DNA of 64,000 nucleotides from Escherichia coli (GTDB lineage: Bacteria; Pseudomonadota; Gammaproteobacteria; Enterobacterales; Enterobacteriaceae): NCBI RefSeq assembly GCF_030013595.1, contig NZ_CP122768.1; one strand, 5' to 3'. The notes beneath the pieces were generated by a model. The model searched no databases. It was not told where the DNA came from and saw only the letters and a program-made list of their open reading frames with translations. Below are positions 11,100 to 49,384 of the stretch, in pieces. A program made the position numbers and the translations under genes. Each line of letters begins with the position of its first letter. The stretch's first letter is position 1.

Positions 11100-11108
11100 G
11101 GAGGAACA

Positions 11109-16690: not shown

Positions 16691-16855
16691 TAGCGAGACC
16701 AGTGATTCAAGATGTTCACATCCGTTTCAGCATACAATAAAAAATATATAAAAATCAACAAAATAGACATAAATGCAGTATCAAGATGTTTCGCCTTGTT
16801 TCTGATGATATCATGTTAAATGTGTACCCCACTGTGTACCCAAAAGGCTGAAGAT

Positions 16856-18175
16856 ATGACTTTTACTATTACACAAGACAGACAATTGGCTTCATTGACC
16901 GTTACTAAAGAAGAAAAAGAAATCTTATTTGCTGTAAAATCTAAAGCTGGGGGAGGACTCTTTATACGCGTTCGTTATGGTAGCGACAATAAAAGCTGGA
17001 TTTATCGTTATCGAATAGCTCAAAAGCCAGCTAAATTAACACTAGGTAGTTACCCTGCCATGGGATTAGCTCAAGCTCGTAAAGCTCATGCGGATGCAAT
17101 TGAATTAGTAAGAAAAGGTATAGATCCTCGTCATATTAGAAAAAATGAAAAACAAAAAAATGAACAAATGATTATTTACTCTGAATTATGGAAAGATTGG
17201 ATAGAATTCAGAAAGACAAGTAAACCAATTAGCACCAGACCCCTTGCAGATTATGAAGGGACTTATCACCGCCACCTTGAAAAAGCATTAGGAAACCTTC
17301 GCATTGACGAACTTACCAAAAGCGTTATTTTTGAACATCTCAGTAATGTAAGAAAAACCAGTTCTGAAGCAGTTCGTAAAGGATTAATTATTCTAAATAT
17401 GACTCTTGATCATGCCAACTTACAGGGTATGCTTGAGCATAACCCAGCACGACTGCTCAAACCAGCAATGTTTGGTGCATCGATGAATAAACCTCGCGAG
17501 CGATGGCTTCCTGAGAATGAACTCCGGATGCTATGGAAGGCTTTGGATGATGCTACTGTTGGAGGAGGCTCCATTGCATCTGGTGGCTATGGAATTTCCT
17601 CTAGTGTGGTATTATCTCATTCTGTCGCAAATGCACTCCGTTTGATTATTTTCACAGGAGTGCGCCGCTCTGAAGCGGCACAAATGCGCTGGGATCAAAT
17701 TAATGGAGAGCGTTGGACCATACCAGCCACTAAAAATGGGAAAAGCCATATTGTTACTTTACATCCGTATATGCTTTCTTTAATAAAAACACAACGTGAA
17801 TTCACTGAAGGTGCATATGTTTTTGGTTCTACTAGCAAACCTGGCTTTCCCATCACAAATGACGCTCTGACTCGCGCGTTAGAAAGGGTTCGCTCTAAGT
17901 ATCTAGCCGAACTTACTCCATTTTCTCCTCATGATCTGCGTAGAAGTGTTGCGACTGGATGCGCTGAATACCTTGATGCTCCAGAGCGCCTAATAGAGTT
18001 ACTGTTAAATCATGTACCCAAAGACCGTTTAATACGAACATATCAAGTCGGACAACAAGCTGAAAAATTAAAAAATTTATTTATAGAATGGGGGAATTTT
18101 ATTATGAATAACGTCATTACTGTGCAGCAGAATGCTCCGGATAATGTTATTCATATAAAATTTGGGAACAGATGA
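16856..18175 (+). CDS. P4-type tyrosine integrase
   Basis: N-terminal arm-binding pattern GGGLFIRVRYGSDNKSWIYRYR...KLTLGSYP...LAQARK; C-terminal catalytic region with R...H..RR and Y; start set at second Met with weak SD (ORF track starts at 16820). Confidence 0.85.
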   Translation: MTFTITQDRQLASLTVTKEEKEILFAVKSKAGGGLFIRVRYGSDNKSWIYRYRIAQKPAKLTLGSYPAMGLAQARKAHADAIELVRKGIDPRHIRKNEKQKNEQMIIYSELWKDWIEFRKTSKPISTRPLADYEGTYHRHLEKALGNLRIDELTKSVIFEHLSNVRKTSSEAVRKGLIILNMTLDHANLQGMLEHNPARLLKPAMFGASMNKPRERWLPENELRMLWKALDDATVGGGSIASGGYGISSSVVLSHSVANALRLIIFTGVRRSEAAQMRWDQINGERWTIPATKNGKSHIVTLHPYMLSLIKTQREFTEGAYVFGSTSKPGFPITNDALTRALERVRSKYLAELTPFSPHDLRRSVATGCAEYLDAPERLIELLLNHVPKDRLIRTYQVGQQAEKLKNLFIEWGNFIMNNVITVQQNAPDNVIHIKFGNR

Positions 18176-21319: not shown

Positions 21320-21334
21320 TGTGCTTCTCTCCAT

Positions 21335-21820: not shown

Positions 21821-21911
21821 GAGATTATTCCTTATAAAAAGTAAATGAATGGAAGAAACCCCGGGGGAAGGGACAAACGTGAGTCAGAACTGCGCTTTCA
21901 GGGAAAAGGCA

Positions 21912-22730: not shown

Positions 22731-22799
22731 TATTTGCTCCTTATGAATGAGTTAGCGGTATAAATGAATAAATATCCTCCGGCATAGCCGGAGGTTTTT

Positions 22800-23520
22800 C
22801 AAATGCGCCTGTAAGGCTCTGTTACCAGCCGCGCCCTAACAGGCGCATACGATCTGACATTTGCATTCAACTTCGTTACTTACGGCCCGTAAACGGGCTG
22901 CCCGGATATGGAATCGATAACTGCTCCCCCATTTTATCCTCTTCAAGCTGGTGCTTTATGTAGTCCTGTATCTTCGCCGTGTTCTTACCCACCGTATCGA
23001 CATAGTACCCTCGGCACCAGAACTCCCTGTTTCTGTATTTGAATTTCAAATCCCCAAACTGCTCGTAAAGCATCAGACTGCTTTTCCCTTTCAGATATCC
23101 CATAAAGCCGGATACGCTCATTTTGGGTGGGATTTCCACAAGCATATGGATATGATCTGCGCAGCACTCTGCTTCCAGAATCCGTACGCTTTTCCACTCA
23201 CACAGCTTTCTCAAAATACTGCCTATCGCCCTACGCTTCTCTCCGTAAAACGCCAGTCTTCGGTATTTCGGCGCAAAAACTATGTGATATTTACAGTTCC
23301 AGCGGGTGTGCGCTAAGCTCTTTTCGTCCCCCATTGGGACCCCCTTTTGATTTCTTGTTTGACACTTGCAGTTGCCAGACCGCAAGGTGTTTTAACAAAT
23401 CAAAAGGGGTTTTAATAACTGGCTCAAAGCTGAAAGCTTTCCGGAACCCCCAGCCTAGCTGGGGGTTTTCTGTGCACAAAAAGCCGCGTCTCCCGGAGAA
23501 GACGCGGCCTGATGGGTGAA
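22800..23520 (-). mobile_element. IS200-like insertion sequence (boundaries approximate)
   Basis: Contains IS200/IS605 Y1 transposase gene; upstream on the minus strand a perfect hairpin gccgcgtcttctccgggagacgcggc followed by a T-run and a second hairpin cccccagctaggctggggg, the characteristic IS200 left-end structures. Confidence 0.75.
22876..23334 (-). CDS. tnpA: IS200/IS605-family Y1 (HUH) transposase TnpA
   Basis: 152 aa from MGDEKSLAHTRWNCKYHIVFAPKYRR with HUH motif ADHIHMLVEIP and catalytic Tyr region; ORF track start 23385 is an extension. Confidence 0.85.
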   Translation of the reverse strand: MGDEKSLAHTRWNCKYHIVFAPKYRRLAFYGEKRRAIGSILRKLCEWKSVRILEAECCADHIHMLVEIPPKMSVSGFMGYLKGKSSLMLYEQFGDLKFKYRNREFWCRGYYVDTVGKNTAKIQDYIKHQLEEDKMGEQLSIPYPGSPFTGRK

Positions 23521-23530
23521 ATGAAGACGT

Positions 23531-23800
23531 TTATTGCCTGAGAATTCCCTCACTGGCGAGATACGGATTTAGCTGTTTTCCGGCATCAGGTTCAAAATTC
23601 CAGTACCGCCAGCGCAACTGACCTTCAGCATTACGGATAACCAGCCGGAAATGCGTTCCCTGGTCATCTTCAATAAGCACATTGCGGTAAGCTGTTGTGA
23701 CGGCAACCGCCTGTTCGCGTGAGAAAGGGCCTTCGGGTAATAAACGTGATGTACAACCCGGCATATCTGTTGCTCCCTGAAAGTAAAAGGCCCCGGTCAT
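23531..23800 (-). CDS. Small hypothetical protein downstream of antigen 43
   Basis: 89 aa ORF, no recognised domain; coding potential judged only by length and context. Confidence 0.4.
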
Positions 23801-23834
23801 GATGACCGGGGCCTGAAGGGGAGTGACCTGATTA

Positions 23835-26681: not shown

Positions 26682-26894
26682 CAGCTTTTCCTTACAGAGG
26701 GTGAATAAAAAAGCCGGTACCCACAAATATGGGTACCGGCAGGTACAAAACAGCATGGTCAGATAAAGTGGTTTTTCCCGGACATAAATGCTTCTCCTCT
26801 CTCATCCGCCAGAGAAGTATCAGTCCGTTGTGTGCAATTCCGTTCTGCATGATGAAGAGATTCAGCTGCCTTTTCGCAGACCATTAACCACTAT

Positions 26895-26938
26895 AAACGA
26901 TCGATGGTAACGATCGATACATGTTTTATCGATCGTTT
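26895..26938 (-). promoter_or_regulatory. agn43 leader with three clustered GATC sites (Dam/OxyR phase-variation switch)
   Basis: GATC at 26899, 26912 and 26931 within about 35 bp, roughly 220-250 bp upstream of the Ag43 start codon. Confidence 0.65.
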
Positions 26939-27052
26939 TATTCTATTAACAGCAAGGCAGTCACGCAAGAGAAAGAGGTGGGTATGAGGTGTTTGTGTCA
27001 TGTTTTCAGTTGGTTAACGCAATGTAATCAGGCATTTCCCCTGGCAGAGTGT

Positions 27053-30400: not shown

Positions 30401-32442
30401 ACAATAAAATCAAGAATGTACCTTCCGTTTCCGTTACTTATGCACGTAATGGCGCATCAACCAAAGCTAATGTGCTTGGGATGCGTCCTATGCAGGAGAG
30501 AGCTTATGAAAAGCGCGGCGAGCAGTACTTGCTTATCAAATCACCACCGGCATCAGGTAAAAGCCGCGCACTGATGTTCATAGCACTCGACAAACTCGAA
30601 AACCAAGGGATTAAACAGGCAATCATCGTTGTGCCGGAAAAATCTATCGGCGCGAGTTTCAACGATGAACCGCTATCGCAGTTTGGATTCTGGGCTGATT
30701 GGCATGTCGAACCTAAGTGGAACCTATGCAACGCGCCCGGTAACGACAACGGGGGCAAGGTAAGATCTTTTGGCTCTTTTCTTGAAAGTAGCGACAAGGT
30801 GCTTGTTTGCACACACGCAACCTTTCGCTTCGCGGTCGATGCCTATGGCGTAGAAGCGTTTGACGATCGCCTGATCGCCGTCGATGAATTCCACCATGTG
30901 TCAGCTAACCCGGATAACAAGCTTGGTCAGCATCTGGGGCAGTTCATCGCGCGTGATAAGACACACATCGTTGCCATGACCGGCTCCTACTTCCGTGGTG
31001 ATGCGGAGGCCGTTTTGGCTCCTCAGGATGAGTCCAGGTTCGATACCGTCACCTATACCTACTACGAACAACTCAACGGTTACGAATACCTCAAGCAACT
31101 CGATATCGGCTACTTCTTTTACAGTGGCTCCTACGTCGATGACATCCTTAATGTCCTCGATCCTGACAAAAAGACCATTATCCATATACCCAACGTCAAT
31201 TCGCGCGAGAGCACGAAGGATAAAATCAAGGAAGTGGAGCATATTCTTAGCGAGCTTGGCGATTGGCAAGGTGCGGATCCTGCGACTGGTTTCCAGCTAG
31301 TCAAATGCCTCGATGGCCGAATGTTGCGTATAGCTGATCTGGTGGACCCAACTAGTCAAGGCAAGATTCAGGAAAGCCTTCGTGCTGCAGAAATGAAGAC
31401 AGACCGTGACTATGTAGACATCATTATTGCACTTGGTATGGCGAAGGAAGGTTTTGACTGGATTTGGTGCGAACATGCGCTGACCGTTGGCTACCGTGCC
31501 AGCCTGACTGAGATCGTGCAGATTATCGGTCGCGCTACTCGCGACGCGCCGGGTAAAAACCGCGCAAGGTTTACTAACCTGATCGCCGAGCCGGATGCTG
31601 TTGAGGGGGCTGTCACCGAGGCAGTCAACGATACCTTGAAAGCCATCGCGGCAAGCCTGCTGATGGAGCAAGTATTAGCTCCGCGCTTCGAGTTCAAGCC
31701 TAAGAACCCAGAAAGTGGTCCGGCCCCAGGCTTTGATTATGGTGATGGTGGATATGACCCGGATAGCTGTAATTTTGGTGTTAATGAGCAGACAGGGACG
31801 TATCAAATCGAGATTAAGGGACTTGCCGAGCCCAGGAGCAAAGAGGCGGCACGCATCTGCCAGGAAGATTTAAACGAAGTGATCGCGGCCTTTGTGCAGG
31901 ATAAGCCCGCCATCGAACGAGGCCTGTTCGATGAAGAGCTGATTCCTGAAGAGTTAACTCAGGTTCGTATGGGTAAGATCATCAAAGAAAAGTATCCTGA
32001 GCTTGATGCTGAAGATCAGGAGGCTGTACGTCAGCATGCTATCGCCGCCCTTAACCTCACGCAGCAGGCCAAGCGTCTTGCCACCGACGATAACGATGGG
32101 ACGCTCAATACTGCTCTTATTGACGGAGTGCGTCGCTTTGCGATGGATGTGCGCGATTTAGACATAGACCTTATCGACCGCATCAATCCCTTTGGTGAAG
32201 CCTACGCTATCCTTGCTAAGACGATGAGTGAAGACAGTTTGAAGCAGGTCGCGGCGGCAATCTCGGCCAAGCGTACCTCGATCACACCTGAAGATGCCAA
32301 GGTGATCGCCAAGCGTGCCGCTGAATTCAAACGTGAACGTGGCCGCCTCCCATCGTTAACTTCGCCGGATGCTTGGGAAAAACACCTTGCTGAAGGTGCA
32401 GCTGCGTTTATGCGTTTTAGGGCGGAGGGACGTTATGAATAA
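30397..32442 (+). CDS. SF2 (DEAD/DEAH, ResIII-like) helicase with about 300 aa uncharacterised C-terminal extension
   Basis: 681 aa; ATGA overlap with MTase stop; Walker A SPPASGKSRA, DExH box IAVDEFHHV, motif III MTGSYF, motif VI QIIGRATRD. Confidence 0.8.
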   Translation: MNNKIKNVPSVSVTYARNGASTKANVLGMRPMQERAYEKRGEQYLLIKSPPASGKSRALMFIALDKLENQGIKQAIIVVPEKSIGASFNDEPLSQFGFWADWHVEPKWNLCNAPGNDNGGKVRSFGSFLESSDKVLVCTHATFRFAVDAYGVEAFDDRLIAVDEFHHVSANPDNKLGQHLGQFIARDKTHIVAMTGSYFRGDAEAVLAPQDESRFDTVTYTYYEQLNGYEYLKQLDIGYFFYSGSYVDDILNVLDPDKKTIIHIPNVNSRESTKDKIKEVEHILSELGDWQGADPATGFQLVKCLDGRMLRIADLVDPTSQGKIQESLRAAEMKTDRDYVDIIIALGMAKEGFDWIWCEHALTVGYRASLTEIVQIIGRATRDAPGKNRARFTNLIAEPDAVEGAVTEAVNDTLKAIAASLLMEQVLAPRFEFKPKNPESGPAPGFDYGDGGYDPDSCNFGVNEQTGTYQIEIKGLAEPRSKEAARICQEDLNEVIAAFVQDKPAIERGLFDEELIPEELTQVRMGKIIKEKYPELDAEDQEAVRQHAIAALNLTQQAKRLATDDNDGTLNTALIDGVRRFAMDVRDLDIDLIDRINPFGEAYAILAKTMSEDSLKQVAAAISAKRTSITPEDAKVIAKRAAEFKRERGRLPSLTSPDAWEKHLAEGAAAFMRFRAEGRYE

Positions 32443-33613
32443 TTCTGATTTAGACGATTTGGCAGCAGAACTTGCCGAGTTTGCACCACCTGAGAAGAAA
32501 AAAGGACGTCCAGCCAGCGAGGAACGCATCATAGCCGGTTTTGAAGAGATCCAGCGCTTTACTGAGCAACATGGGCGTGTCCCGCAACATGGCGAAGAGC
32601 GTGATATCTTCGAGCGTCTCTATGCAGTGCGGCTCGACCGCCTACGCAGTCTCCCAGACTGCCGTGCCTTGCTAGAGCCACTGGATCATCAGGGCTTATT
32701 AGCTGGAGGGGGCGATGTAGCGGAGTCTGCGGACGAAATTATCGATATCGATAACTTGGCTGCCGAACTGGCGGATGTTTCCAGCGAGGACGATATCACG
32801 GTCTTGCGTCATGTTCGTGCTAGCACCGAAAAGCGCGTTGTACAAGGAGTTGCGGATCGCAAGCCGTGCGAGGATTTTGATGCGTTCAAACCACTATTTG
32901 AGCAGGTACGCAATGATCTAAGTTCAGGGTTAAGAGTGACCCGACCTTTTGGGCAGTATGCAACGATTGAAGTGGGTCATTGGTTTATCCTGGATGGTCA
33001 AACGGCTTATGTGTCTGAGGAAGGTGAAGAGTTCGATTCTCCACAGGGGAAGAAAGATGCTCGGCTGCGTGTCATTTATTCGAATGGTACAGAAAGCAAC
33101 CTACTTCGGCTGTCATTGGTTCGTGCTTTGTATAAAGACGAAACAGCGCGTCGAATTACCGATCCAGACATGGGGCCTTTATTCAGCGATGCTCTAGAAG
33201 AGAGCGATCTAGAAAGTGGCACTATTTATGTGTTGCGTTCGCTATCTGATAACCCTTATGTAGCTGAACATCGTGATGTCATTCACAAGATTGGAGTGAC
33301 TGGCGGCAAAGTAGAGGCGCGTATTGCCAATGCGGAACACGATTCCACCTATCTGTTAGCGAAAGTCGAGGTGGTAGCTTCATACAAGCTTGCAGGCATC
33401 AACAGCACCCGGATGGAAAACCTGTTTCACAGGTTGTTTGCACCCGCAAGGCTTAACATTACCATTAACGACCGTTTCGGCCATCCAGTGCAGCCCGAGG
33501 AATGGTTTCTCGTTCCGTTATTCGTTATCGATGAGGCTGTTGCACGTATTAAGGATGGTAGCATCATTGGGTATGTTTATGACCCCATGTCTGCGAAACT
33601 GGTGAAGGCATAG
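32435..33613 (+). CDS. Protein with C-terminal T5orf172 / GIY-YIG-superfamily domain
   Basis: 392 aa; start ATG 32435 overlaps the helicase stop by 8 nt and has GGAGGG SD; C-terminus GTIYVLRS...HKIGVTGGKVEARI...ENLFHRLF...EEWFLVP matches the T5orf172/GIY-YIG pattern; N-terminus has two acidic repeats DLDDLAAELAEF and DIDNLAAELADV. Confidence 0.7.
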   Translation: MNNSDLDDLAAELAEFAPPEKKKGRPASEERIIAGFEEIQRFTEQHGRVPQHGEERDIFERLYAVRLDRLRSLPDCRALLEPLDHQGLLAGGGDVAESADEIIDIDNLAAELADVSSEDDITVLRHVRASTEKRVVQGVADRKPCEDFDAFKPLFEQVRNDLSSGLRVTRPFGQYATIEVGHWFILDGQTAYVSEEGEEFDSPQGKKDARLRVIYSNGTESNLLRLSLVRALYKDETARRITDPDMGPLFSDALEESDLESGTIYVLRSLSDNPYVAEHRDVIHKIGVTGGKVEARIANAEHDSTYLLAKVEVVASYKLAGINSTRMENLFHRLFAPARLNITINDRFGHPVQPEEWFLVPLFVIDEAVARIKDGSIIGYVYDPMSAKLVKA

Positions 33614-34426: not shown

Positions 34427-36191
34427 ATATCACGAACGGTGCAATAGTGGTTCTTCCGCAACTTGGGTGGAAGAAAATGGATGAAACTTTCTGGTGAACA
34501 AGGATCTAAGCTGTTTTAAGTTATGGGCAACGCAATGCACTCTCTTAAGACACTTCTACAGTTACCTTGCGGATGGCGATGCAGTCGACAAATTATTAGC
34601 TCTGACGGTATCACCCTCCATCTCCACGGAAAACGCAAAACAGCACAATGTCCTGAATGCTCTAAGCGTAGCGACTCTGTTCATAGTTCTCGTCGGCGCC
34701 GGATACAGCATCTACCCTGCTCCGGGCAGACGCTATGGCTTGTATTTTCCGTCCGCCACTGGTACTGCCGTAACCCGGCTTGTTCACGTAAAATTTTTGC
34801 CGAGTCGCTTGCTCCCTTCGCCGGTTCACACCAGCAGTCTTCACAGGCGTTACAAAATTTACAACGTCAACTGGGATTAATAGCTGGAGGTGAGGCTGGA
34901 AAACGGGCTGCAACGGCAGCGGGTCTCCGTTGCAGTGCTGATACTCTTCTTCGCAGGGTTATCAATACCCCGGAGACGAAACAGTCAGGCGCGCCTCATG
35001 TCGGTATTGATGAGTGGGCGTGGCATCGGGGCCACTGCTGCGGTATGTTAATAGTCAATCTTGATACTCACCGTCCCCTCGTCCTGCTTCCCGGCCGTGA
35101 TCAGCGTACGCTGGCGACCTGGTTCAGAAAATATCCGGAAATACAGGTTGTCTCGCGTGATCGCAGTGGAGTCTATGCGACAGCAGCACGTGAAGGTGCA
35201 CCTCAGGCCAGACAGGTGGCCGATCGATGGCACCTGCTAAAAAATATTGGTGATGAGCCTGAACGAATGATGTACAGACATATACCTCTGATACGTCTTG
35301 TTGCCAGTGAGTTGTCACCAAAGAAATCACCTGAGCCAGAACTGTCTGTGCCTGCAGCATCGCTCCGTCGTCCGGAACGCCTTAAACAGCAAACCCGCAA
35401 AAAACGGCATCAGCGTTGGACAGAGGTTATGGCCCTGCATAACAAGGGATGTAGTTTCAGGGAAATATCCCGTATTACAGGCCTGTCGCGTGTGACAGTC
35501 AGTCGCTGAGTACGTTCAGGAACATTCCCTGAAATGTCAACCCGACCTCCAAAGCGAGGGCTTTTGGACCCATGGAGGGAGTGGTTAAAAGAGCAACGAG
35601 AAAGTGGGAATTATAACGCCAGCCGGATAATGGCGGGAAATGGTGGTCCGGGGGTTTACAGGCAGTGAAACCATTGTCAGGGATACTGTTGCCAAATGGC
35701 GTAAAGGCTGGATCCCACCGGTTACTACTGCCGTCAGACTTCCTTCAGTGTCCCGGGTAAGGCGCTGGTTGATGCCCTGGAGAATAATCAGGGATGAAGA
35801 AAATTATGCTTCCCGATTTATTAGTCTGATGTGTGAAAAAGAACCGGAGCTGAAAATAGCGCAGCAACTGGTACTCGAGTTCTACCGTATTCTGAAAACC
35901 CAAAATAAATCACAGCTTAGCAGCTGGTTCACTCGAGTCCACGAAAGCGGTTCAGCAGAACTTCGGCGCGTGGCTGCGGGGATGGAAGCTGATGCTGCGG
36001 CTATATGTGAGGCAATCAGCAGTCGCTGGAGTAATGGTGTTGTCGAAGGTCATGTAAATCGCCTGAAGATGTTGAAACGCCAGATGTATGGTCGAGCCGG
36101 ATTTGAACTGCTCAGGCAGAGGGTCATGAGTCCACTGGCATGAAAATCTCCACCCAAGTTGCGGAAGAACCACTTTTCATCCGTCGTTGAC
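34427..36191 (+). mobile_element. ISL3-family insertion sequence nested in IS66 tnpA
   Basis: Perfect 23 bp terminal inverted repeats ggttcttccgcaacttgggtgga (34449-34471) and tccacccaagttgcggaagaacc (36149-36171), extending imperfectly outward; removing 34427-36196 restores the IS66 tnpA frame. Confidence 0.75.
34523..36143 (+). pseudogene. ISL3-family transposase, disrupted by an in-frame stop and a frameshift
   Basis: Two ORFs (34523-35509 and 35640-36143); N-terminal zinc-finger-like HLHGKRKTAQCPECS and C-terminal WSNGVVEGHVNRLKMLKRQMYGRAGFELLRQRV typical of ISL3 transposases; TGA at 35507-35509 followed by a frame change. Confidence 0.75.
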
Positions 36192-36498: not shown

Positions 36499-36840
36499 AT
36501 GATAAATCTTCCCGCAGGCACAAAAATCTGGCTGGTTGCCGGTATCACCGATATGCGCAACGGCTTCAATGGTCTCGCCGCAAAGGTGCAGACAGCGTTG
36601 AAAGATGACCCGATGTCCGGCCACGTCTTCATCTTCCGGGGCCGCAGCGGCAGTCAGGTCAAACTGCTGTGGTCCACCGGCGACGGACTGTGCCTGCTGA
36701 CCAAAAGGCTGGAGCGTGGCCGCTTCGCCTGGCCGTCGACCCGCGATGGCAAAGTGTTCCTGACGCCGGCGCAGCTGGCGATGCTGATGGAAGGTATCGA
36801 CTGGCGACAGCCAAAGCGGTTACTGACGTCCCTGACATGT
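36499..36840 (+). CDS. tnpB: IS66-family TnpB (orf2)
   Basis: MINLPAGTKIWLVAGITDMRNGFNGLAAKVQTALKDDPMSGHVFIFRGRSGSQVKLLW...GIDWRQPKR matches IS66 orf2; ATGA overlap with preceding tnpA frame; 3' end merges into the truncation junction. Confidence 0.7.
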
Positions 36841-37684
36841 TGTAGCCCAGGTCTTCTTCGTTGATAAAGTTCACATCCAGAGGATGGATACTTCCTGTAG
36901 CCCGTAATATCGTCGGTTCAATATCCTGCACATTCATCGGGATCACCGATGCAAGAAAAGCCCATTGATCAGAATAAGGCTGGAAATTAATATCAACAAA
37001 AACGCTTCCCCCCGATGCACGCGGTCTTTTTTGCAGAGGTAACGCGATAAGATTACCAAATCCTCCTTTTGGCATAGTATCCTGATTAGGAAATAATCGG
37101 TCATAAGAACTCAATTGCAGCTGTCGGGTCCGGCTGCACGTATAGCTAATAATAGCAGTCCCCAGACGGCGAGCTTCGCGGGCCGAAACTCGTGAAGCAA
37201 AAAATATCCAGACATGCGCTCCCTGACGTGAGCGGGATATTTCCAGCGCAGCAGGTACACTCAGCTCATCACAGGCTCGCATGAACGCGGATGCATCCTT
37301 CTGCCATTCAGCTTTATCAAAATCAACAGCCAGAAAATAACAGGAATCATCTTCCAGCAACGGATATAACCCGGCAGTATGCGTGCCTGCCAGATGCTGG
37401 TAGATGACAAGATCAGATACAGGGAGTAACTGACGGTGCGTACAGTCCCCGCATTTTATCCGGGGTTTACCGCATATTCTCGCCTGCCATTCGTTAGCGC
37501 AGGCAGGAGAGTACCCTGATTTGCCGCTGGTTTTACTTTCCCAACGAAGGGCCCATATATCATCACGCCCACGAAACAACCGACGAAATAATGCAACCTT
37601 CTCGTCGGTGGATAATACGGAAACGCGCTGCACAGGGCTCGGCGGTTTACGTCGCCATTCCAAGTAATGAGACCAGACGGGCAT
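36841..37684 (-). pseudogene. Archaeo-eukaryotic primase (AEP / Prim-Pol)-like gene, 3'-truncated by the IS66 remnant
   Basis: N-terminal LFRRLFRGRDDIWALRWE, DxD motif FLAVDFDK, GAHVWIFF and GGFGNLIALP motifs; the last third of the listed 341 aa ORF is antisense IS66 tnpB sequence. Confidence 0.6.
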
Positions 37685-37887
37685 TTTCTGCCCTCAATGC
37701 AGCTAATTCATCGCTGTCAGATTTATGAACCATATTCGTTACCTGTATCCGATCCACTGAGGCACCACGGCAGAAATTCGGGTCCCCTACACTGATGACA
37801 AAGCGCCCCGCCCTCTTCTGCCTATTAACTCAAGCACCTCCCAACAACTTACAGAAACTTAATTCTAATACCTAATACAGCTGTAAT

Positions 37888-38451
37888 TCAGTTGTGTCGT
37901 GGTCGGCCCCGGTTACTTTTTTCGGGAAGCCTGCTACGGCCCAGAATAATACCGTGTTCTTTCTGATCCTGTTTAGCCAGGTAGCTGAGGGCGTAACGTA
38001 AGTCGTCTACCGCGGACTTATCACTATAGTGAATCACGTGATCGATACGCACCGGGTATTTATCTTTAGCCCGGCACAGATGAAAATAACCATCCCCTTC
38101 CGTGATCCGCCTCCAGATATCTCCCAGTTGCCTGGATATCTGATAAGAGTTCTTGTGACGTTGTCCATCCAGGTAGCCGATAAAATGAATATGAAGCCCT
38201 TTGTCTGGTGTATATTCCATAACCCAGTAATATCCTGCCAACATCGTTTGGTTTTCGCTAAGTAAACGGTATATTTCCATACACATACTGTGCTTACAGG
38301 AATGCCCGAAACTGGGCGTGTATTTCCTGTAGGCAAAATCAATTCTGAAAGGTAACAGTTTAGAAAAACGTTGAAACAGACCTTCCATGTGTTCATTCAC
38401 ATCTTTCAGAATCGCGAAATTCATTTCGTAATTGGGATTGGCATTATACAT
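37888..38451 (-). CDS. YagK/YfjJ-family (inovirus Gp2-like) protein
   Basis: 187 aa; recalled family resemblance and conserved position next to DUF3987/alpA in CP4-like islands. Confidence 0.65.
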   Translation of the reverse strand: MYNANPNYEMNFAILKDVNEHMEGLFQRFSKLLPFRIDFAYRKYTPSFGHSCKHSMCMEIYRLLSENQTMLAGYYWVMEYTPDKGLHIHFIGYLDGQRHKNSYQISRQLGDIWRRITEGDGYFHLCRAKDKYPVRIDHVIHYSDKSAVDDLRYALSYLAKQDQKEHGIILGRSRLPEKSNRGRPRHN

Positions 38452-38581
38452 TTTATAGTCCTTACTTTATAAAATTCACAGGAAGAGGGAATTACGTAAA
38501 TACTGAGAGTACATAAACGCCGTACCACGGCATTAATAAACGAGGTAACCAGCAGTACAGACAACCTGATAAAACTGTTTG

Positions 38582-38609
38582 GTATTACCTCATTACAATG
38601 AGGTAATAC
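38582..38609. promoter_or_regulatory. Perfect 13 bp palindrome (gtattacctcatt ac aatgaggtaatac) upstream of the YagK-like gene
   Basis: Exact inverted repeat with 2 bp spacer, about 130 bp upstream of the start codon inside a roughly 970 bp AT-rich non-coding region. Confidence 0.35.
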
Positions 38610-39423
38610 TTCAGAATACAGTGAGGCTCTCTTAAACAGAGGACTAGTAAGAATTACAATGGCAAAAACACACCTCATAGAATTAAGTTTAAGGAAGTAC
38701 CATTCAATCACTTACAGGAAGTAATCTGATCTTCACAAAAGTCAGCTATCGAATAGCCACAGGCAACATCGCTATTAATATTGCCGTACCATTAAGTAAA
38801 AACAGGGACTCTGCAGAGAGAGCCTACAGATATTTAACCTCACAATAAGAAGATTATTTTATACAGAAAATATTATATTTACCCATACTTATAAACTGTA
38901 ATGGAGCTATAACATACGAACTAAAGACAATATACTCTAATAGTGTTCTGGTACGTAACTAGTGTTAAATACAAACCAGACATACATTCAGTGGATTAAC
39001 TATCTCAATATTACGCTATGAGCGTAGTAACATAATTTACACATAACTAAACCCCATACACCTCCACACTGTAGTATATGGGATAGACGCATTACGCACA
39101 TACAGAATACTCAGCATAACATAAAGAGGAGTGACATTACGATAAAAAGAGACAACATAACAGATAACATAACTCCCATTAATAATACTAATTAACCTAA
39201 ATTATTTATTGAATACGAAAACAATGAAGGCCCCACCTCACCTCAGACTAAAGCCGACAATATCCTGAGCAACAGGATATCCAATAGTAAATAGTGGTTA
39301 CACCAGTTATATTTACTGACTGACCTGTACCAGAGTTTTCTAATACAACGCTGACATGGTAAAGGCATTAGTCTCCTCCGCAAGTAGCAGAGGAGACTAT
39401 ATGTTAGTCAACGATTAAGTTGT

Positions 39424-40874
39424 TCAGAGGTCAAAGTTAGGTGCGACACACAACGTTTTTCCCTCAATAACCGGTACAACTCTGTTTTGTTCATACAGTA
39501 AATCCAGTAACCAGTTGATTTTATCCTTTTTCCGGAAACGGTTCGGACCACGCTGTAAAATGTCATTTTTTTTCATACAGAGGATCCCCTTCTCAATGCA
39601 ATAGCTTTTTATCCAGTTGAAAAGTTCAAGCTCCTCTGGAATGAGTCGCACAGGTACGGTCAGGGCAGGGTTGTCAAAAGTTAACGGATTAGACAACCGC
39701 ACATACTCATTACCGTACCATATTGCTAATTCTCTCGCCATTTCTGCAATGTAAGGGGAAATCTCCCCCTCCTCACCGCTCGAATGGTAAATAAGTCCTG
39801 CCAGTCTTGCCATATACTCTGCATTTTTAGCAGCATATTCCCGGCAATGTCTTAAAGGCCCCAATCCCCCCAGCTTCGATTCCACATCATTGTAATAATC
39901 CGTCCAGATTCTGGCAGCCTGAGGAGAAAAGTGAAGGCAACGTCGTTCACCACTCATCGCCAGACTTTCATCAATAAGCTCATTGATCCTCTGTTCAAAC
40001 AAATCCTGATACTGTGATGAATAATTATCTCCGGTTATTATCCTTGTCCCCTGCGTTGATGTTGGTTGACACATCAAAAACCTTGCATGATGTCCTGACG
40101 TTTTCACAAGTTCTTTTTTTCGCGTACAAAAACCTTTGTGGTAAACATCAGGCTGAATCATCGCCGACATCGTCAGTCTTGGCTCCTTCAAATTAATTCC
40201 GGGAGATGATTTCCTGTCGATGAAAAGAGAACCTCCATCCCACAAAGTGTTAATAATTCCCAGTTTACTCATGGCCCGGCTGTCAAAAATTCCCCCCCTT
40301 CACTGGATACAAGAGCAAAAGAACGATTGCTATCGGAGTAATATTTTAACATTCCCTCTATCGTTGTCTCATTAAAAATTGTTCGACGTATCTGCGGCGG
40401 AACAGGAGACTTATTCAGATGCGTTTCAAGCTCTGATTCTGTTGCCTTGTAATCTTTACCGGCACGAATCTCTTTATGAAATTTTGATTCCAGCGCTTTT
40501 TGTTTTTGCTCCCATATTTCCTTTTCTGTGCTGTAATTCTCAACCAGTTTCGCGTATTCTTCCGCCAGGGCTTCATCCCTGAGATAAAATGCTTTCATAA
40601 ACACTTTATCCACGGTCGTTTTCCTTTCACCAGAATCAGCCAGAATCAGAGAGTAAAGATTAACAGGCCCACGTAAATTTCCAGGTCTGCACACGTCAAT
40701 CTGATTCTGACAGGCAATTGAGATCGCTGTTAATGCGGATGTCGCCACCATAGCCAAAGGTGCCTGTGTATTTTTTTGAGTTTCAATTATTGCATTTCTC
40801 ACCAGCGGTGGTAGTGCATATATCGGATAAGGATTTTCTGGTGCAAGTAAGCACATAAAAGCCTCTCTTTTCAT
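39424..40874 (-). pseudogene. YfjI-like DUF3987 protein gene split by a frameshift in a C7/G7 homopolymer
   Basis: Two ORFs (40874-40269, 201 aa; 40272-39424, 282 aa) in adjacent frames; both frames are open across the C7 run at 40292-40298 and one extra C would fuse them into about 483 aa. Confidence 0.6.
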
Positions 40875-41104
40875 TAATGGGTTAGTAAAGTAGCAGCAAC
40901 TCCCGCTATAATAGCGAAATAGCTGCTGTTCAGACCTAATGTTCTGAGAAATACAGAATATCTGTAGATCTGATGTTTAATAAACCGATAAGGTTAATTC
41001 AGTTCATACTGTGTTATTTACCACGAAATATCATTCATGTTTCTCATTCTTAACACCTCCTAAAATTATTTCACTAACACCTTCCCCCCGGTCTTTTTCC
41101 TTTC

Positions 41105-41332
41105 TCAGGAATCAGCCAGAACCATAGTGTAAATATTAACGGGCCCACGTAAATTTCCGGGGTTGCACACGTCAATCTGATTCTGACAGGCAATTGATAT
41201 CGCTGTTAATAATGATGTTGTAGTCATAGCCAGAGATGCTTTTTCATTGTGTTGAGTTTCAATTATTGCATTTCCAGTCATTGATGGTTGCGCATATACT
41301 GGATACGGAGTATCCGGTTTGATGTAAGACAT
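41105..41332 (-). pseudogene. Duplicated 5' fragment of the DUF3987 gene
   Basis: 75 aa ORF with an LAM..TS.LTAISIACQNQIDVC.PGNLRGPVN.Y core shared with the N-terminus of the ORF at 40874; flanking DNA 41100-41410 repeats 40620-40930 at roughly 80 percent identity. Confidence 0.55.
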
Positions 41333-41437
41333 AAATATTTCCTTTTTTCGTAATAACTTTCGGTTATAGCAGCTATTTCCGCTACAATAGCAACAATAGC
41401 TGCTATACAGACTGGATATACTGAAAATACAGACAGT

Positions 41438-41686
41438 TCATCTGGTCTGTATCCAGCAGAGAAGGTCACTTAACAACCATCCGCAAGATTTCTTTCCGAT
41501 AGACTTACGTGGTGGAAATGTTCCCTCCCGTTCAAGTTTCCACGCTTGTGTACGAGAAATTGACGTGATCTCATATCGTTCCTTTTCACGTACCAGTCTG
41601 TCGCATTCAATCCCATAAGCTTTCAAAATGACCAGACGCTGTTCATCTGTTAATGGAAGCCACATACTACCCTCCTGATATATCAA
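41438..41686 (-). CDS. alpA: AlpA-family phage/island transcriptional regulator (HTH)
   Basis: C-terminal YEITSISRTQAWKLEREGTFPPRKSIGKKSCGWLLSDLLCWI matches the AlpA HTH pattern; true start may be an internal Met. Confidence 0.7.
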   Translation of the reverse strand: MIYQEGSMWLPLTDEQRLVILKAYGIECDRLVREKERYEITSISRTQAWKLEREGTFPPRKSIGKKSCGWLLSDLLCWIQTR

Positions 41687-42355
41687 TACTTTTTATTTCC
41701 GGCATGAGCATGAAATGACTAAGTTTCCCGGATAAACAATGAGTGAAAGTCACTATCATTCATCCAGTCAACACCTTACAAATAAAATGTAATACTATGA
41801 TTTTTATAGGTCAAAATACTGAATTGAAATGTTAAAATGGCTTTTAATAGAAAAAATAAAGACATATAGAACCAAATAAAAACAAGCCGCGACCAATAAA
41901 AACAAAAATTAATATTAAAAATCCATTATGACGATTTTTGTTGACTAAAATTAGGTTGGGATATATAAATAAATCCATGTAAAATTCAAACAAAGCATGG
42001 AGGAGTCGCAGGAAGGTGAAATATTTCCATCTAATTTGTGATAATCATCACAAAAATAAGCTACAACAAGCGGAGGAAAAGACAATCTGTTGCTGAACAG
42101 ACAGAAGCAGGCTACGAATGATCGGAAAATGAAGCAAATACGCTTATACAGAAGACGCAGAGGTAACTGACGGAGACAATCACAATCAGGAGAAAATTAT
42201 CGTAAATAATGTATAAAATCTCAGGATATAAACAAATGTACACAAGCTATCCACGTAATCAGCGGCTGGCTCAGGATTAACGTTTCATTTCAGTGGACAA
42301 CATCGATTCTGTCTGACAGCGGACCAATATGTAGCAAGCAGAAACTTCTGACATC

Positions 42356-43954
42356 ATGGTAACTCGGACAATGCAACAAAAGTATCAGTATGATCGTGTT
42401 TTATCCGGCGAACTCCACCCATTCCCTGGCATATACGAGGCGGTTTCCGAACAAATCCTTTTGCTCATTTTTAAAGCACGTCAACTATATCAGGATCCAG
42501 AATATCGCCCCTGGTTTGAAGAACAGCACAGAGTACTCTCTGCATTACGTGCCAATACAGAGCTCCTGAGAATCTTTAGAGAACAAAGAAGCGCTGAAGA
42601 ACCAAAGCTTACTATTGAAGAGTCTACCTCCCCCCAACCCACTCCTTCTGCTCTTACAGATGCGCTTAATGTGATGTGCCATTTATACAATGGTTTTGAT
42701 GAAGGAAATATCAGTCTGAAAACTTGGGGGGCGATGCAAGAGGTACAGACAACATCAACCTTTATCAGCCCAGGACCGAGAACCTGGAAAACACCTGAAC
42801 TGGCAAAGTTTGTAGGAGATGATTTATTTAATATTCTGACTGAATGTAAGGCCTGGAGTTCACCAATTCCAGCAGAAACCCGACAGGGGTATTGCCATCA
42901 GGATCTGTCTGTTGCACACTCCTGCACCTCAGAGTTACTGGCACACCTGAATCAATATCATGAAATTGATGAATCAGCAATACTTGCCAGAGTTATTGGT
43001 ATAACAGTTAACGGATTCTACAAGAAAAATAATACAGACCTTCCAGAATGGCTATCCCCCTTTAAAGAGGAACATAAAATATTCAGAGATTGTCCGGAGC
43101 AAAATACCGGGGATGTAATCAGACGGAAAGAACAACTGTTGAAAACAGGACGTACAGAATTCGTGAATAATTTGTGTCGGGTCGCCAACTGGTATGAAAT
43201 TGAGTCAATATACGATGAATACGTCCGTCTTTATGCCAATGAAATCATTGACTGGTTCAACAAAACCATGAAGTATTTTAAACCAACAGATTTTATCCGA
43301 TATACATGGAAATTCGCAACAGTTACTCCGGATAAAGATACAGAAACCGGGCATACAACTGCATGGGAAAAGGATTATTGCCAGATAACCATACAACGTG
43401 ATGAACTTCTGAGGTTGATTCACACCAATACCCTTCAGGATGCAGTAATTTATCTTTGTCATTGTCTACAGAAGGAATACAAGAAATCATCCCAAAATGA
43501 GATAGAGTTCCCAGGAATAAAACCTCCGACATCAGAGAGTAAAATTAATATAACAAATAATATTAAATTTCATTCTCTCCTGGAGCTCAGTAAAGATAAT
43601 GAGAAGCGTCTGGAAACATTTCAAAAATGGTATGAAAAAAATAAAGTTTTGTTAGAAAGTCATAAACAAAAACGAACAGAGAAGATTGACGTTGCCGTAC
43701 GACTTGTAGGGCTGAAAGCCTATGATCTGCATGAAGGGATTCCGGATAGTCCAAAACGAAAAGTTAAAGATGGCATAAATGAAGACATCAAAGCCGATAC
43801 CAGTTTACGCCTGTCAAAGACAAATATAAGTGATACGTCGCTAAACCGTTATCGCCGCACTGTTAAGGAGATTATCAATAACGAAATTGACGCATTCCTG
43901 TTGGAACAGAAGAAAAAAATAAAAGATTTCCCTACAGTGAAGATAGAGATGTGA
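42356..43954 (+). CDS. Hypothetical protein, 532 aa, no recognisable domain
   Basis: Long uninterrupted ORF in an AT-rich segment; no Walker, nuclease or HTH motif found by eye; start codon uncertain, no clear SD. Confidence 0.55.
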   Translation: MVTRTMQQKYQYDRVLSGELHPFPGIYEAVSEQILLLIFKARQLYQDPEYRPWFEEQHRVLSALRANTELLRIFREQRSAEEPKLTIEESTSPQPTPSALTDALNVMCHLYNGFDEGNISLKTWGAMQEVQTTSTFISPGPRTWKTPELAKFVGDDLFNILTECKAWSSPIPAETRQGYCHQDLSVAHSCTSELLAHLNQYHEIDESAILARVIGITVNGFYKKNNTDLPEWLSPFKEEHKIFRDCPEQNTGDVIRRKEQLLKTGRTEFVNNLCRVANWYEIESIYDEYVRLYANEIIDWFNKTMKYFKPTDFIRYTWKFATVTPDKDTETGHTTAWEKDYCQITIQRDELLRLIHTNTLQDAVIYLCHCLQKEYKKSSQNEIEFPGIKPPTSESKINITNNIKFHSLLELSKDNEKRLETFQKWYEKNKVLLESHKQKRTEKIDVAVRLVGLKAYDLHEGIPDSPKRKVKDGINEDIKADTSLRLSKTNISDTSLNRYRRTVKEIINNEIDAFLLEQKKKIKDFPTVKIEM

Positions 43955-44078
43955 TTCGACCTTTATGGGGAAAATGCCTGACCGGGCAGTAGATCACAGA
44001 TGGGATAACATCCCGGTTATCCCCTGTTTGTTCTGCTTCAGGTTGCCAGAGCTCCAGGAACACGAGGCAATCGGCAAA

Positions 44079-44675
44079 TTATGCGGCTTTTCCATTAACA
44101 GATTCGGCCACAAGAACAACACCGTGTTTGTTTCGATCAGGATGTTCACTCCAGATTTCTGATTCAGGAATACTTTCCCCATCATAGCAGATCCGATCAC
44201 CATCAAACGGATAATACCGTGCGGAATCTGTATCTAAGATAAACACCTTAAGATTCGTTGAACGACGCGCTATATGCTGCCAGAGGGCTTTACCTCCTTC
44301 ATATTGCTCGTTATCACTTAATAGTATAACGCCTGCTTTTGTGGCTATTGTTTCATAAACAAACGTAGCAAGGCTAACATCACGTACAGCACCATCGACA
44401 ACAATCCCTTCAATCTGAGCAACGTCCTGTTCTTCCCAGAATTTCCGGACAAACACCCCTTCAAGCTGTGAACGACGCTGAAGCTCCAGAGTGGCAACAA
44501 CCTTATGGCGAATATCACCATCAATAACAGAAGGTGCAGCTTCGATTACCGCAGCGAACGGAGTCTTTGGATCCCAGATGATCTGGTAAAGCACACCCTG
44601 AATAGTTACTCCATCCAGTATCGAAAAACGACGAGCTACAGTAGCAGGGGAGTAAGACATTGGAATGACAGCCAT
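44079..44675 (-). CDS. Hypothetical protein, 198 aa
   Basis: ORF adjacent to thrW inside the island; no recognised motif. Confidence 0.5.
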   Translation of the reverse strand: MAVIPMSYSPATVARRFSILDGVTIQGVLYQIIWDPKTPFAAVIEAAPSVIDGDIRHKVVATLELQRRSQLEGVFVRKFWEEQDVAQIEGIVVDGAVRDVSLATFVYETIATKAGVILLSDNEQYEGGKALWQHIARRSTNLKVFILDTDSARYYPFDGDRICYDGESIPESEIWSEHPDRNKHGVVLVAESVNGKAA

Positions 44676-44975
44676 TTTATGGCCTAAAATTTGAAAACAT
44701 CAGTATCAATACTGACCTCATCAGTCTGAGCATATATTGATAAAGTTTTTATGTTTACACTCAATAAATACCTTACCAAACAACTAATAGCGATGTCTAC
44801 ATTGCCATTCGACATGCTTACAATTTTTGTCAACAAGAAAGTGAATTTATATCAACGGTAAGAAGTAAACACGAGGACACCAAAACCAAATGTACACACT
44901 TTTGTGCTTTGTGTCCCCTGTGTGTACCCAAATGACAAACTGCAAGAAAATCTAGGCACACACTTATCTAACTTA

Positions 44976-45031
44976 TTGATTTAAATGGTGCCGATAATAG
45001 GAGTCGAACCTACGACCTTCGCATTACGAAT
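44976..45031 (-). repeat. Island-junction direct repeat overlapping the 3' part of thrW
   Basis: 56 bp match to 16635-16690 with 2 mismatches. Confidence 0.85.
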
Positions 45032-45061
45032 GCGCTGCTCTACCAACTGAGCTATATCGGC
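44986..45061 (-). tRNA. thrW: tRNA-Thr (anticodon CGT)
   Basis: Reverse complement reads GCCGATATAGCTCAGTTGGTAGAGCAGCGCATTCGTAATGCGAAGGTCGTAGGTTCGACTCCTATTATCGGCACCA; 76 nt with CCA end, located next to proA. Confidence 0.95.
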
Positions 45062-45175
45062 CCTGAAAGGACATGTTCACGAACGTGAATCACGGTGGAC
45101 AAGGTTAAAACTAACCGGGCGATGCGTCAATGGCCTTGTGAATCAAATGGCTACTTTTGCATCACCCGGTTTTAT

Positions 45176-46429
45176 TTACGCACGAATGGTGTAATCACCA
45201 ATGCCGATCCACTTGTAAGTGGTCAGTGCTTCCAGCCCCATTGGGCCACGCGCGTGGAGTTTTTGTGTGCTTACCGCCACTTCCGCACCCAGACCAAACT
45301 GGCCGCCATCGGTAAAACGCGTAGAGGCGTTAACGTAAACAGCGGACGAATCCACTTCGTTAACAAAACGCTGGGCGTTGCGCATATCGCGGGTCAGGAT
45401 CGCATCGGAGTGTTGTGTGCCGTGTTCACGAATATGGGCGATGGCATCGTCAAGATCGCTGACGATTTTAACGTTCAAATCTAATGACAGAAACTCATCG
45501 TCATACTCTTCGGCTTTAACAGCCACCACCTTCGCGGGGCCTGCCTGCAACTGCGCCAGCGCAGCTACATCTGCGTGTAATGCCACGCTGCTTTCCGCCA
45601 TTTGCTTGCTTAATGCGGGCAGGAAGCTATCGGCGATGTTTTTATTTACCAGCAACGTTTCTACCGTATTACATGTGCTCGGACGCTGAGTTTTTGCGTT
45701 GACGATTACTTTCAGGGCTTCAGCGATCTCTGCACTTTCATCAACGTAAATATGGCATACGCCTATACCGCCTGTGATCACTGGGATTGTCGACTGTTCG
45801 CGGCACAGCTTATGCAGGCCAGCGCCTCCACGCGGGATCAGCATGTCGATGTATTTATCCATACGCAGCATTTCACTGACCAGCGCACGGTCAGGATTAT
45901 CAATCGCCTGCACGGCACCCGCCGGTAAGCCGCAGGATTTCAGGGCGTCCTGAATCACCGCTACCGTTGCAGCGTTAGTGCGACAGGTTTCTTTGCCACC
46001 ACGCAGGATCACCGCGTTACCGGTTTTCAGGCACAGCGAAGCGACATCAACCGTCACGTTCGGGCGCGCTTCATAAATCACGCCAATAACCCCCAGCGGT
46101 ACGCGACGACGCTCAAGACGCAGGCCGCTGTCCAGTACGCCGCCATCGATTACCTGCCCCACCGGATCGGCGAGATTACACACCTGACGCACATCGTCGG
46201 CGATGCCTTTCAGCCGTGCGGGCGTCAGTGCCAGACGGTCAAGCATCGCTTCGCTAAGGCCATTGGCACGCGCGTCAGCAACATCCTGGGCGTTAGCGTT
46301 GAGGATGATTTCGCTTTGTGCTTCCAGTTCATCGGCGATTTTTTCCAGCACGCGATTTTTTTCGCGGCTGGAGAGTTGCGCTAATTTATACGAGGCTTGC
46401 TTCGCGGCAATGCCCATTTGTTCCAGCAT
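45176..46429 (-). CDS. proA: Gamma-glutamyl phosphate reductase
   Basis: 417 aa; recalled match to ProA; conserved proBA operon. Confidence 0.95.
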
Positions 46430-46440
46430 CGGCCAGCTCC

Positions 46441-47544
46441 TTAACGGGTAATCATGTCATCACGGTGAACGGCAACCGGGCCATATTCATATCCCAGTAT
46501 TGCATCAATTTCTTGCGAGTGGTGTCCGGCAATGCGGCGTAACGAATCGCTGTTGTAACGACTGACGCCGTGAGCGATATCGCGACCTTCGAGGTTGCAA
46601 ATGCGGATGACTTCACCACGCGAGAAATTGCCAGTCACGCTTTTAATGCCTTTCGGCAACAGGGAGCTGCCGCGTTCAAGAATGGCGGCAGTTGCGCCTT
46701 CATCTACCGTGATTTCACCCGCCGGCGGCGCACCGAAAATCCAGCGTTTGCGGTTTTCAAGCGGAGTCGCCTGGGCATGGAACAACGTACCGACGGAGAT
46801 GCCTTCCATCACATCACCAATAACGCCCGGCTTGCTGCCCGCGGCAATAATGGTGTCGATACCCGCACGGCAAGCCACGTCCGCGGCCTGCAATTTGGTA
46901 CTCATGCCGCCAGTTCCGAGGCCTGAAACGCTGTCGCCAGCAATCGCTCGCAGTGCGTCATCAATGCCGTAAACATCTTTAATCAGTTCTGCCTGCGGAT
47001 TGCTGCGCGGGTCAGCGGTATACAAACCTTTTTGATCGGTCAGCAGCAACAGTTTATCGGCACCCGCCAGAATCGCCGCCAGCGCAGAAAGGTTATCGTT
47101 ATCGCCGACCTTAATCTCTGCAGTCGCGACAGCATCGTTCTCATTGATTACCGGAACGATATTGTTATCGAGCAACGCACGCAGGGTGTCGCGGGCGTTC
47201 AGGAAGCGTTCACGGTCTTCCATATCAGCACGGGTCAGCAGCATTTGCCCGACGTGAATGCCATAAATCGAAAACAGCTGTTCCCACAGTTGAATCAGTC
47301 GACTCTGCCCTACCGCCGCCAGCAGTTGTTTCGAGGCGATAGTCGCTGGCAGTTCTGGGTAACCCAGGTGCTCACGTCCGGCGGCAATCGCGCCCGACGT
47401 CACAATAACAATCCGATGCCCGGCGGCATGTAACTGCGCGCACTGGCGAACGAGTTCAACAATATGGGCACGGTTCAGGCGGCGCGATCCGCCTGTTAGC
47501 ACACTGGTGCCGAGTTTTACCACCAGCGTCTGGCTGTCACTCAT
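46441..47544 (-). CDS. proB: Glutamate 5-kinase
   Basis: 367 aa from [16 protein letters not shown] with C-terminal PUA domain; ORF track start 47631 is an extension. Confidence 0.95.
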
Positions 47545-47831
47545 GATTCTCTGCCATTCAATTTTAGGAAAAATGATATCAAACGAACGTTTTAGCAGGA
47601 CTGTCGTCGGTTGCCAACCATCTGCGAGCAAAGCATGGCGTTTTGTTGCGCGGGATCAGCAAGCGTAGCGGCAGTTGTTTACGCTTTTATTACAGATTTA
47701 ATAAATTACCACATTTTAAGAATATTATTAATCTGTAATATATCTTTAACAATCTCAGGTTAAAAACTTTCCTGTTTTCAACGGGACTCTCCCGCTGAAT
47801 ATTCGCGCGTTAATTAAAATCAGGAATGAAA

Positions 47832-48887
47832 ATGAAAAAGAGCACTCTGGCATTAGTGGTGATGGGCATTGTGGCATCTGCATCCGTACAGGCCGCAGAA
47901 ATATATAACAAAGACGGTAATAAACTGGATGTCTATGGCAAAGTTAAAGCCATGCATTATATGAGTGATAACGACAGTAAAGATGGCGACCAGAGTTATA
48001 TCCGTTTTGGTTTTAAAGGCGAAACACAAATTAACGATCAACTGACGGGTTATGGTCGTTGGGAAGCAGAGTTTGCCGGTAATAAAGCGGAGAGTGATAC
48101 TGCACAGCAAAAAACGCGTCTCGCTTTTGCCGGGTTGAAATATAAAGATTTGGGTTCTTTCGATTATGGTCGTAACCTGGGCGCGCTGTATGACGTGGAA
48201 GCCTGGACCGATATGTTCCCGGAATTTGGTGGCGACTCCTCGGCGCAGACCGACAACTTTATGACCAAACGCGCCAGCGGTCTGGCCACTTACCGTAACA
48301 CTGACTTCTTCGGCGTTATCGATGGCCTGAACTTAACCCTGCAATATCAAGGGAAAAACGAAAACCGCGACGTTAAAAAGCAAAACGGCGATGGCTTCGG
48401 TACGTCATTGACATATGACTTTGGTGGCAGCGATTTCGCCATCAGTGGGGCCTATACCAACTCCGATCGCACTAACGAGCAGAACCTGCAAAGCCGTGGC
48501 ACAGGCAAGCGTGCAGAAGCATGGGCAACAGGTCTGAAATACGATGCCAATAATATTTATCTGGCAACTTTCTATTCTGAAACACGCAAAATGACGCCAA
48601 TAACTGGCGGCTTTGCCAATAAGACACAGAACTTTGAAGCGGTCGCCCAATACCAGTTTGACTTTGGTCTGCGTCCGTCGCTGGGTTATGTCTTATCGAA
48701 AGGGAAAGATATTGAAGGCATCGGTGATGAAGATCTGGTCAACTATATCGATGTTGGTGCTACGTATTATTTCAACAAAAATATGTCGGCATTTGTTGAT
48801 TATAAAATAAACCAACTGGATAGCGATAATAAGCTGAACATCAATAATGATGATATTGTCGCGGTTGGCATGACCTATCAGTTTTAA
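47832..48887 (+). CDS. phoE: Outer membrane phosphoporin PhoE
   Basis: 351 aa porin with signal peptide [21 protein letters not shown] and C-terminal aromatic F. Confidence 0.9.
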
Positions 48888-48894
48888 TGGATAT

Positions 48895-48917
48895 TGCCGG
48901 ATGTGATGCATCCGGCA
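48895..48917. terminator. REP-like palindrome / bidirectional terminator between phoE and crl
   Basis: Inverted repeat tgccggatg / catccggca. Confidence 0.5.
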
Positions 48918-48925
48918 CATTTCAC

Positions 48926-49384
<459 letters not shown>

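Follow-up and report, generated by a model that had tools for sequence, protein, structure and literature searches.

A YfjI-family gene split beside a homopolymer in an Escherichia coli thrW island is probably a recent frameshift pseudogene

Two adjacent open reading frames in an Escherichia coli genome meet exactly at a run of seven C, and the locus raises the question of whether they are two genes, one gene that is switched on and off, one gene that has been broken, or one gene that was misread. The stretch of DNA we analyzed, hereafter the window, comprises 64,000 nucleotides of contig NZ_CP122768.1 (assembly GCF_030013595.1), and the features of the locus are collected in Table 1. On the + strand the run stands in the context AAAATT-CCCCCCC-TTCACTGG. 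The frames of ORF A and ORF B are both open through it, and one base added (or two removed) at the run joins them into one continuous reading frame of about 483 aa. A continuous protein of that length after one extra base had been proposed by an earlier, sequence-only reading, and our frame reconstruction confirmed it. ORF A, whose start as annotated in relatives is at 40856 (MCLL...), ends in SSEGGEFLTAGP followed by a stop; the residues read after the shift are EFLTAGP. The stop codon of ORF A overlaps the start codon of ORF B in an ATGA. ORF B begins with MSKLG, and its ATG is an internal Met of the intact protein; the same frame stays open for nine codons 5' of this ATG (RGGIFDSRA), up to a TGA at 40300-40302. 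Overall, the window contained two G/C runs of at least seven bases, compared with 6.4 +/- 2.5 in shuffled sequences. The run by itself is ordinary, and the point of note is the coincidence of a frame break with it.

Table 1. Positions of the split gene, its break site and neighboring features in the window.
Feature	Position	Strand	Remarks
C7 run (G7 on the coding strand)	40292..40298	-	two Gly codons GGG GGG plus base 1 of the next codon
One-base deletion site	40291..40292	-	A (+ strand) in intact relatives = T of the GTA Val codon
ORF A, N-terminal half of YfjI-like predicted helicase	40269..40874	-	201 aa; Walker A SGERKT and Walker B strand/glutamate
ORF B, C-terminal half of the same gene	39424..40272	-	282 aa; DUF3987 profile 168-363 plus C-terminal domain
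AlpA-family regulator gene	41438..41686	-	5' of the helicase gene; order as alpA-yfjI in K-12 CP4-57
DUF3987 N-terminus remnant	41105..41332	-	75 aa; about 77% DNA identity to the gene's 5' part; pseudogene in relatives
YagK/YfjJ-like gene (inovirus Gp2-type)	37888..38451	-	3' of the helicase gene
Truncated AEP-TOTE primase-polymerase gene	36659..37684	-	341 aa vs about 788 aa intact (NZ_CP054169.1)
Integrase gene of the island	16820..18175		
tRNA-Thr (CGT), thrW island boundary	44986..45061	-	adjoins proA

We first consider what the two ORFs encode. The reconstructed protein matched the Pfam family PF13148 (DUF3987) with 281.4 bits (cut-off 27), its residues 31-390 covering positions 1-363 of the 364 in the profile. 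Searched separately, ORF A scored 143.7 bits over profile positions 1-159 and ORF B scored 128.6 bits over positions 168-363 of 364. Because these matches fall on complementary parts of the profile, the two ORFs are two halves of one DUF3987 domain, in agreement with the earlier proposal that a DUF3987 (YfjI-like) gene is split at the run. In an alignment of 58 sequences, R78-K79 of Walker A were invariant and S75-G76-E77 nearly so, E186 was nearly invariant, and the consensus at the site was SxEGG. The run lies directly 3' of the Walker B glutamate codon. The frameshift falls at residue 188/189, just past Walker B and within the ATPase core; in the AlphaFold (AF2) model (pLDDT 89.7) the Walker B strand spans residues 180-184, and the break comes right behind it.

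With few exceptions, the top Foldseek matches in the PDB, which reached E-values down to 7e-5 and probability 1.00, were MCM subunits; ComM was also among the leading matches, and TM-scores were only 0.3-0.4. The model thus points to an MCM-like (SF6) AAA+ fold, and the conserved motifs are consistent with the Walker A and Walker B of the DUF3987/YfjI family. DUF3987 proteins of phages and mobile elements have been described as SF6/MCM-like helicases that often occur together with AEP primases (PMC4889955, PMC5862659), and a PriCT-DUF3987 protein has been reported to be a 5'-3' helicase that depends on Walker A and B (PMC11724360). By analogy, the gene is predicted to encode the YfjI/DUF3987 helicase of the thrW island.

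The identity of the missing base came from comparison with intact alleles. The gene occurs in about 1400 records of complete E. coli genomes, and most of these have it intact, as a "YfjI family protein" of 477 aa. Intact relatives read TT-A-CCCCCCC-TT, that is, their run also has seven C, and it follows an A that is absent from the window; at the site as a whole, the intact allele is TTACCCCCCCTT and the window allele is TTCCCCCCCTT. On the coding strand the intact sequence is GAA GGG GGG GTA ATT, which gives SSEGGVIFDS as the ancestral protein sequence and places the loss at the T of the Val codon. Two details of the sequence-only reading had to be given up at this point. It had supposed that the run is one base short (G8 to G7), but the intact allele also has G7, and a C8 allele without the A was found in none of the 1110 complete-genome E. 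coli records. It had also taken a third Gly (SSEGGGIFDS) to be ancestral, where intact alleles have Val (GTA). Finally, it had allowed for homologues that form two separate genes with the same break, and these proved to be single 477-aa genes. A frameshift at a homopolymer should therefore be compared with intact alleles before a change in run length is assumed.

How often does each allele occur? The census covered those 1110 complete-genome records with allele probes of about 93-98 bases, for which an identity of at least 99% is reached only by an exact match. The intact arrangement, A followed by C7, was matched exactly in 943 records. A followed by C6 was present in eight records and A followed by C8 in two, and one further record probably has C9. 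The window allele, C7 without the A, was found in 0/1110. The site pattern was not found in the GTDB representative genomes. A pattern scan of metagenome contigs recovered 41 copies of the site, all of in-frame length, with neither the window allele nor any length change among the 41. Their site sequences were TACCCCCCC in 36 contigs, TATCCCACC in two, and TACCCCTCC, CACCCCCCC and CCCCCCCCC in one each, the last at low coverage. In some intact alleles the run is broken by substitutions (CCCCTCC, TCCCACC). At the protein level, a collection of about 15 billion proteins contained neither the exact ORF A product nor the exact ORF B product, and the intact protein identical to our reconstruction was on record in 243 blocks.

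Two candidates arising from these searches were set aside. A 282-aa protein cluster with 1034 members (P0004) at first looked like ORF B in many genomes; the match was actually an N-terminal piece truncated where its contig ends, and the cluster is a mixture of partial sequences. A two-step route to the window allele, in which the A became C and the resulting C8 then shrank to C7, would pass through a C8 allele that was seen in 0/1110 records, and one low-coverage metagenome contig has C9. That contig, NODE-196 of ERZ781270 (L018 321-360, coverage 3.7), reads SSEGGGIFDS in frame; this is the protein sequence that the sequence-only reading had proposed, but on a different allele.

These counts bear directly on the idea that the G7 tract slips often and thereby toggles the island helicase on and off. 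The run does lie inside the coding region, where a single-base change toggles the frame, and a gain of one G would restore it; length variants do exist in the few genomes listed above. Nevertheless, the ON and OFF alleles are equal in run length, and the change lies outside the run. The length variants amount to about 1% of the 1110 records and 0/41 metagenome contigs, and at least one of them looks like an assembly artefact. Moreover, the substitutions that interrupt the run in some intact alleles mean that it is not conserved as a run; it is short (seven bases), sits mid-gene at a conserved E-G-G motif, and belongs to a gene predicted to encode a replication helicase and not a surface or restriction function. 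Judged by the alleles compared here, the two marks of a contingency locus, a difference in tract length between ON and OFF states and frequent tract-length polymorphism, both appear to be lacking, with C7 exact in 943/1110. We consider a phase-variable switch very unlikely, and the site is unfit for lists of candidate phase-variable loci. The switch had been one of three options in the sequence-only reading, which also asked for tract length to be compared among strains; that length hardly varies. Its other two options, a recent inactivation and a sequencing error, were both retained after the allele comparison and have to be weighed against each other.

The nearest relatives narrow the age of the lesion. 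A draft assembly, GCA_001650605.1 (L061), aligned to window positions 37442-48954 (11.5 kb) with 0 mismatches and one gap, which is the missing A. Over 15.6 kb, another assembly, GCA_900448395.1 (L072), showed one mismatch and three single-base gaps relative to the window; its copy of the gene is intact. None of the complete RefSeq E. coli genomes exceeded 99.2% identity over 22 kb. Comparison of intact alleles with the reconstruction gave dN/dS values of about 0.07-0.66, which suggests that the gene is normally maintained under purifying selection. Since the allele is unique and is the single difference from the sister assembly, the one-base loss appears to be private to this genome and very young.

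The same two observations suit a sequence error, in which the organism carries the intact TTACCCCCCCTT and the A beside the run was dropped in base calling, consensus or assembly. A consensus error would look just like a missing A that is the sole difference from a sister assembly, and an error would leave an allele that is absent from the complete genomes, the metagenome contigs and the protein collection alike. The deletion also borders a G/C run, and homopolymer artefacts occur in public assemblies at this very tract: EcN_Sk has C6 where other Nissle 1917 assemblies have C7. On the other hand, the homopolymer in the window has the correct length of seven, and the base that is lost is its non-repeated neighbor, which is not the usual platform error. 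There is no other indel relative to the sister assembly in 11.5 kb, other homopolymers included. This, together with a natural A7 described below, makes the region look accurately assembled. We therefore regard a sequence error as less likely than a real mutation and on the whole unlikely, while taking it seriously.

The A7 lies at 43913-43919 (+ strand) in the ORF 42356-43954, where several relatives have A8; the C-terminus is altered as a result, and the product has 532 instead of 545 aa. It was at first a candidate for a second deletion private to the window, and was rejected on finding the 532-aa product in 46 blocks, the sister assembly among them. Both the A7 and the A8 alleles thus circulate. 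The product of this ORF had no Pfam match.

The assembly of EcN_Sk (L011, NZ_CP172017.1), a derivative of Nissle 1917, deserves mention in its own right. Compared with Nissle 1917 (L012), it has five contracted runs of at least seven bases in 13 kb that are otherwise identical, among them the C7 to C6 change in the YfjI gene, and three genes are thereby "frameshifted". In the flanks, the differences between the two are dense substitutions. The pattern of contractions reads as the signature of assembly error, and the window, with its single gap relative to the sister assembly, does not resemble it, a further point for a real mutation. Some of the tract-length variation in public complete genomes is accordingly of this kind.

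Taken as a whole, the evidence favors the reading that the gene in the window is a real, private and recent pseudogene produced by a non-programmed one-base deletion, to which we assign a probability of about 0.62. The base would then be truly missing in the organism. The features expected of a pseudogene are seen in the alignments: an intact orthologue exists, both in the sister assembly and as the protein of 243 blocks, and a single indel appears to account for the break. The affected protein would belong to an MCM-like AAA+ family that provides mobile elements with their replicative helicase. In this genome, the T that follows G7 on the coding strand (the A between 40291 and 40292 on the + strand) would have been lost through a spontaneous error of replication at the homopolymer's edge and not through a change in run length, and such an event would be neither programmed nor reversible. 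Misinsertion followed by realignment is the expected route to the loss of a non-repeated base beside a run. Here, a C may have been misinserted opposite the T, after which the primer end may have realigned on the first G of the run, so that the non-repeated neighbor was deleted. Translation would leave the frame just past the Walker B glutamate, continuing from S-E-G-G into the short tail of ORF A and its stop, and the ATPase core would be cut into pieces of 195-201 aa and 282 aa. With the core cut in two, the gene has probably lost its function.

Could the split gene still work? The two halves might be made separately and assemble, or a -1 slip or RNA polymerase slippage might yield some full-length protein. 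Reinitiation is conceivable where the TGA of ORF A overlaps the ATG of ORF B. Relative to ORF A, the frame of ORF B is -1, and a tRNA-Gly on a P-site GGG codon can shift back by one base and pair with GGG again, which would give SSEGGGIFDS. The homologues, however, are single-frame genes that need no recoding, and the break, coming right behind the Walker B strand, interrupts the ATPase core. The site reads A-GGG-GGG-A and lacks the canonical X XXY YYZ heptamer. A programmed frameshift would be expected to show the two-frame layout in homologues, and those compared here appear as single-frame genes of 469-482 aa. The allele is also unique, so there is no selection for recoded or split expression. 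Of all the readings considered, continued function of the split gene seems to us the least probable.

The preferred reading, a recent frameshift pseudogene, has a practical consequence: the two ORFs are best annotated as a single frameshifted pseudogene of the YfjI family and not as two genes. It is a pseudogene of a known kind in a known family, with little significance beyond annotation. A broader claim would be that mutations recur at the boundary of the G7 run, a hot spot at which independent E. coli lineages silence the island helicase. We give it only a slight chance; if true, the hot spot would amount to a crude off switch, working mostly in one direction, by which the island becomes locked in the chromosome.

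The surroundings of the gene are those of a degenerate element. The island extends from the integrase gene to the tRNA-Thr gene beside proA (Table 1). The AEP-TOTE primase, likely the partner of the helicase, is truncated, and its gene adjoins pieces of IS66 and ISL3; it is already inactivated in genomes with an intact yfjI too. The remnant of a second DUF3987 N-terminus corresponds to a repeat (40585-40957 vs 41061-41433); it may have arisen by an old, partial tandem duplication, or it may be a recombination scar. The ISL3-family transposase gene at 34523-36143 (+ strand) carries an extra A at 35629 and falls into two ORFs (328 and 167 aa); it is intact (539 aa) in the closest complete genome and in a further relative, L074, and a split is shared by GCA_900448395.1. 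Decay of the neighborhood is thus seen in the truncated primase, the split ISL3, the DUF3987 remnant and the IS66 pieces. Loss of the helicase probably costs the cell nothing.

Other parts of the window were noted in passing. The stretch 28256-33613 (+ strand) encodes an MmeI-like methyltransferase/restriction protein, a DEAD-box helicase (681 aa) and a GIY-YIG/T5orf172 nuclease. The MmeI-like protein has 714 aa in the window vs 928 aa in L074, and the cluster resembles a defence module with an N-terminally shortened first gene. The distal part of the island, at 17000-27000, holds CP4-type cargo as in the closest genome, comprising a CbtA/CbeA toxin-antitoxin pair, RadC, an antirestriction protein and an Ag43-type autotransporter (ORF 23835-26756). 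Outside the island, at 7262-12062, there is an aldehyde oxidoreductase operon that resembles paoABCD.

The locus can be set beside several known systems. The closest is the intact allele WP_021519321.1 (477 aa), which is identical save for one base, stands at the same thrW/proA position and is flanked by the same genes; unlike the window gene, it has the A before C7 and forms a single ORF. K-12 YfjI (b2625, CP4-57, PF13148) aligned end to end with 42% identity over 465 aa (E 2e-128). The K-12 prophage shares the gene order alpA-yfjI-yfjJ with our locus, and the two proteins share the Walker A motif SGERK[ST] and a Gly directly behind the Walker B glutamate. However, the K-12 gene is unbroken; at the site its protein reads SDEAGIIF, without the Gly-Gly pair that the run encodes in the window, and the gene lies in the ssrA-linked CP4-57, whereas the window gene is in the thrW island and frameshifted. 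AgaPH (PriCT-DUF3987) and the DUF3987 helicases of phages resemble the window locus in their Walker A/B ATPase domain, in the association with an AEP primase gene, and in an element linked to an integrase and a tRNA. By contrast with AgaPH, the window protein has no PriCT domain, the neighboring primase is a truncated TOTE-type AEP, and the role as a helicase is a predicted one. Finally, the phase-variable genes of Neisseria, Haemophilus and Campylobacter likewise carry a G/C run within the reading frame and lose the frame at that run. The run in the window differs from those tracts in that its length is unchanged between alleles and hardly polymorphic, and in that it is short (seven bases) and unconserved as a run.
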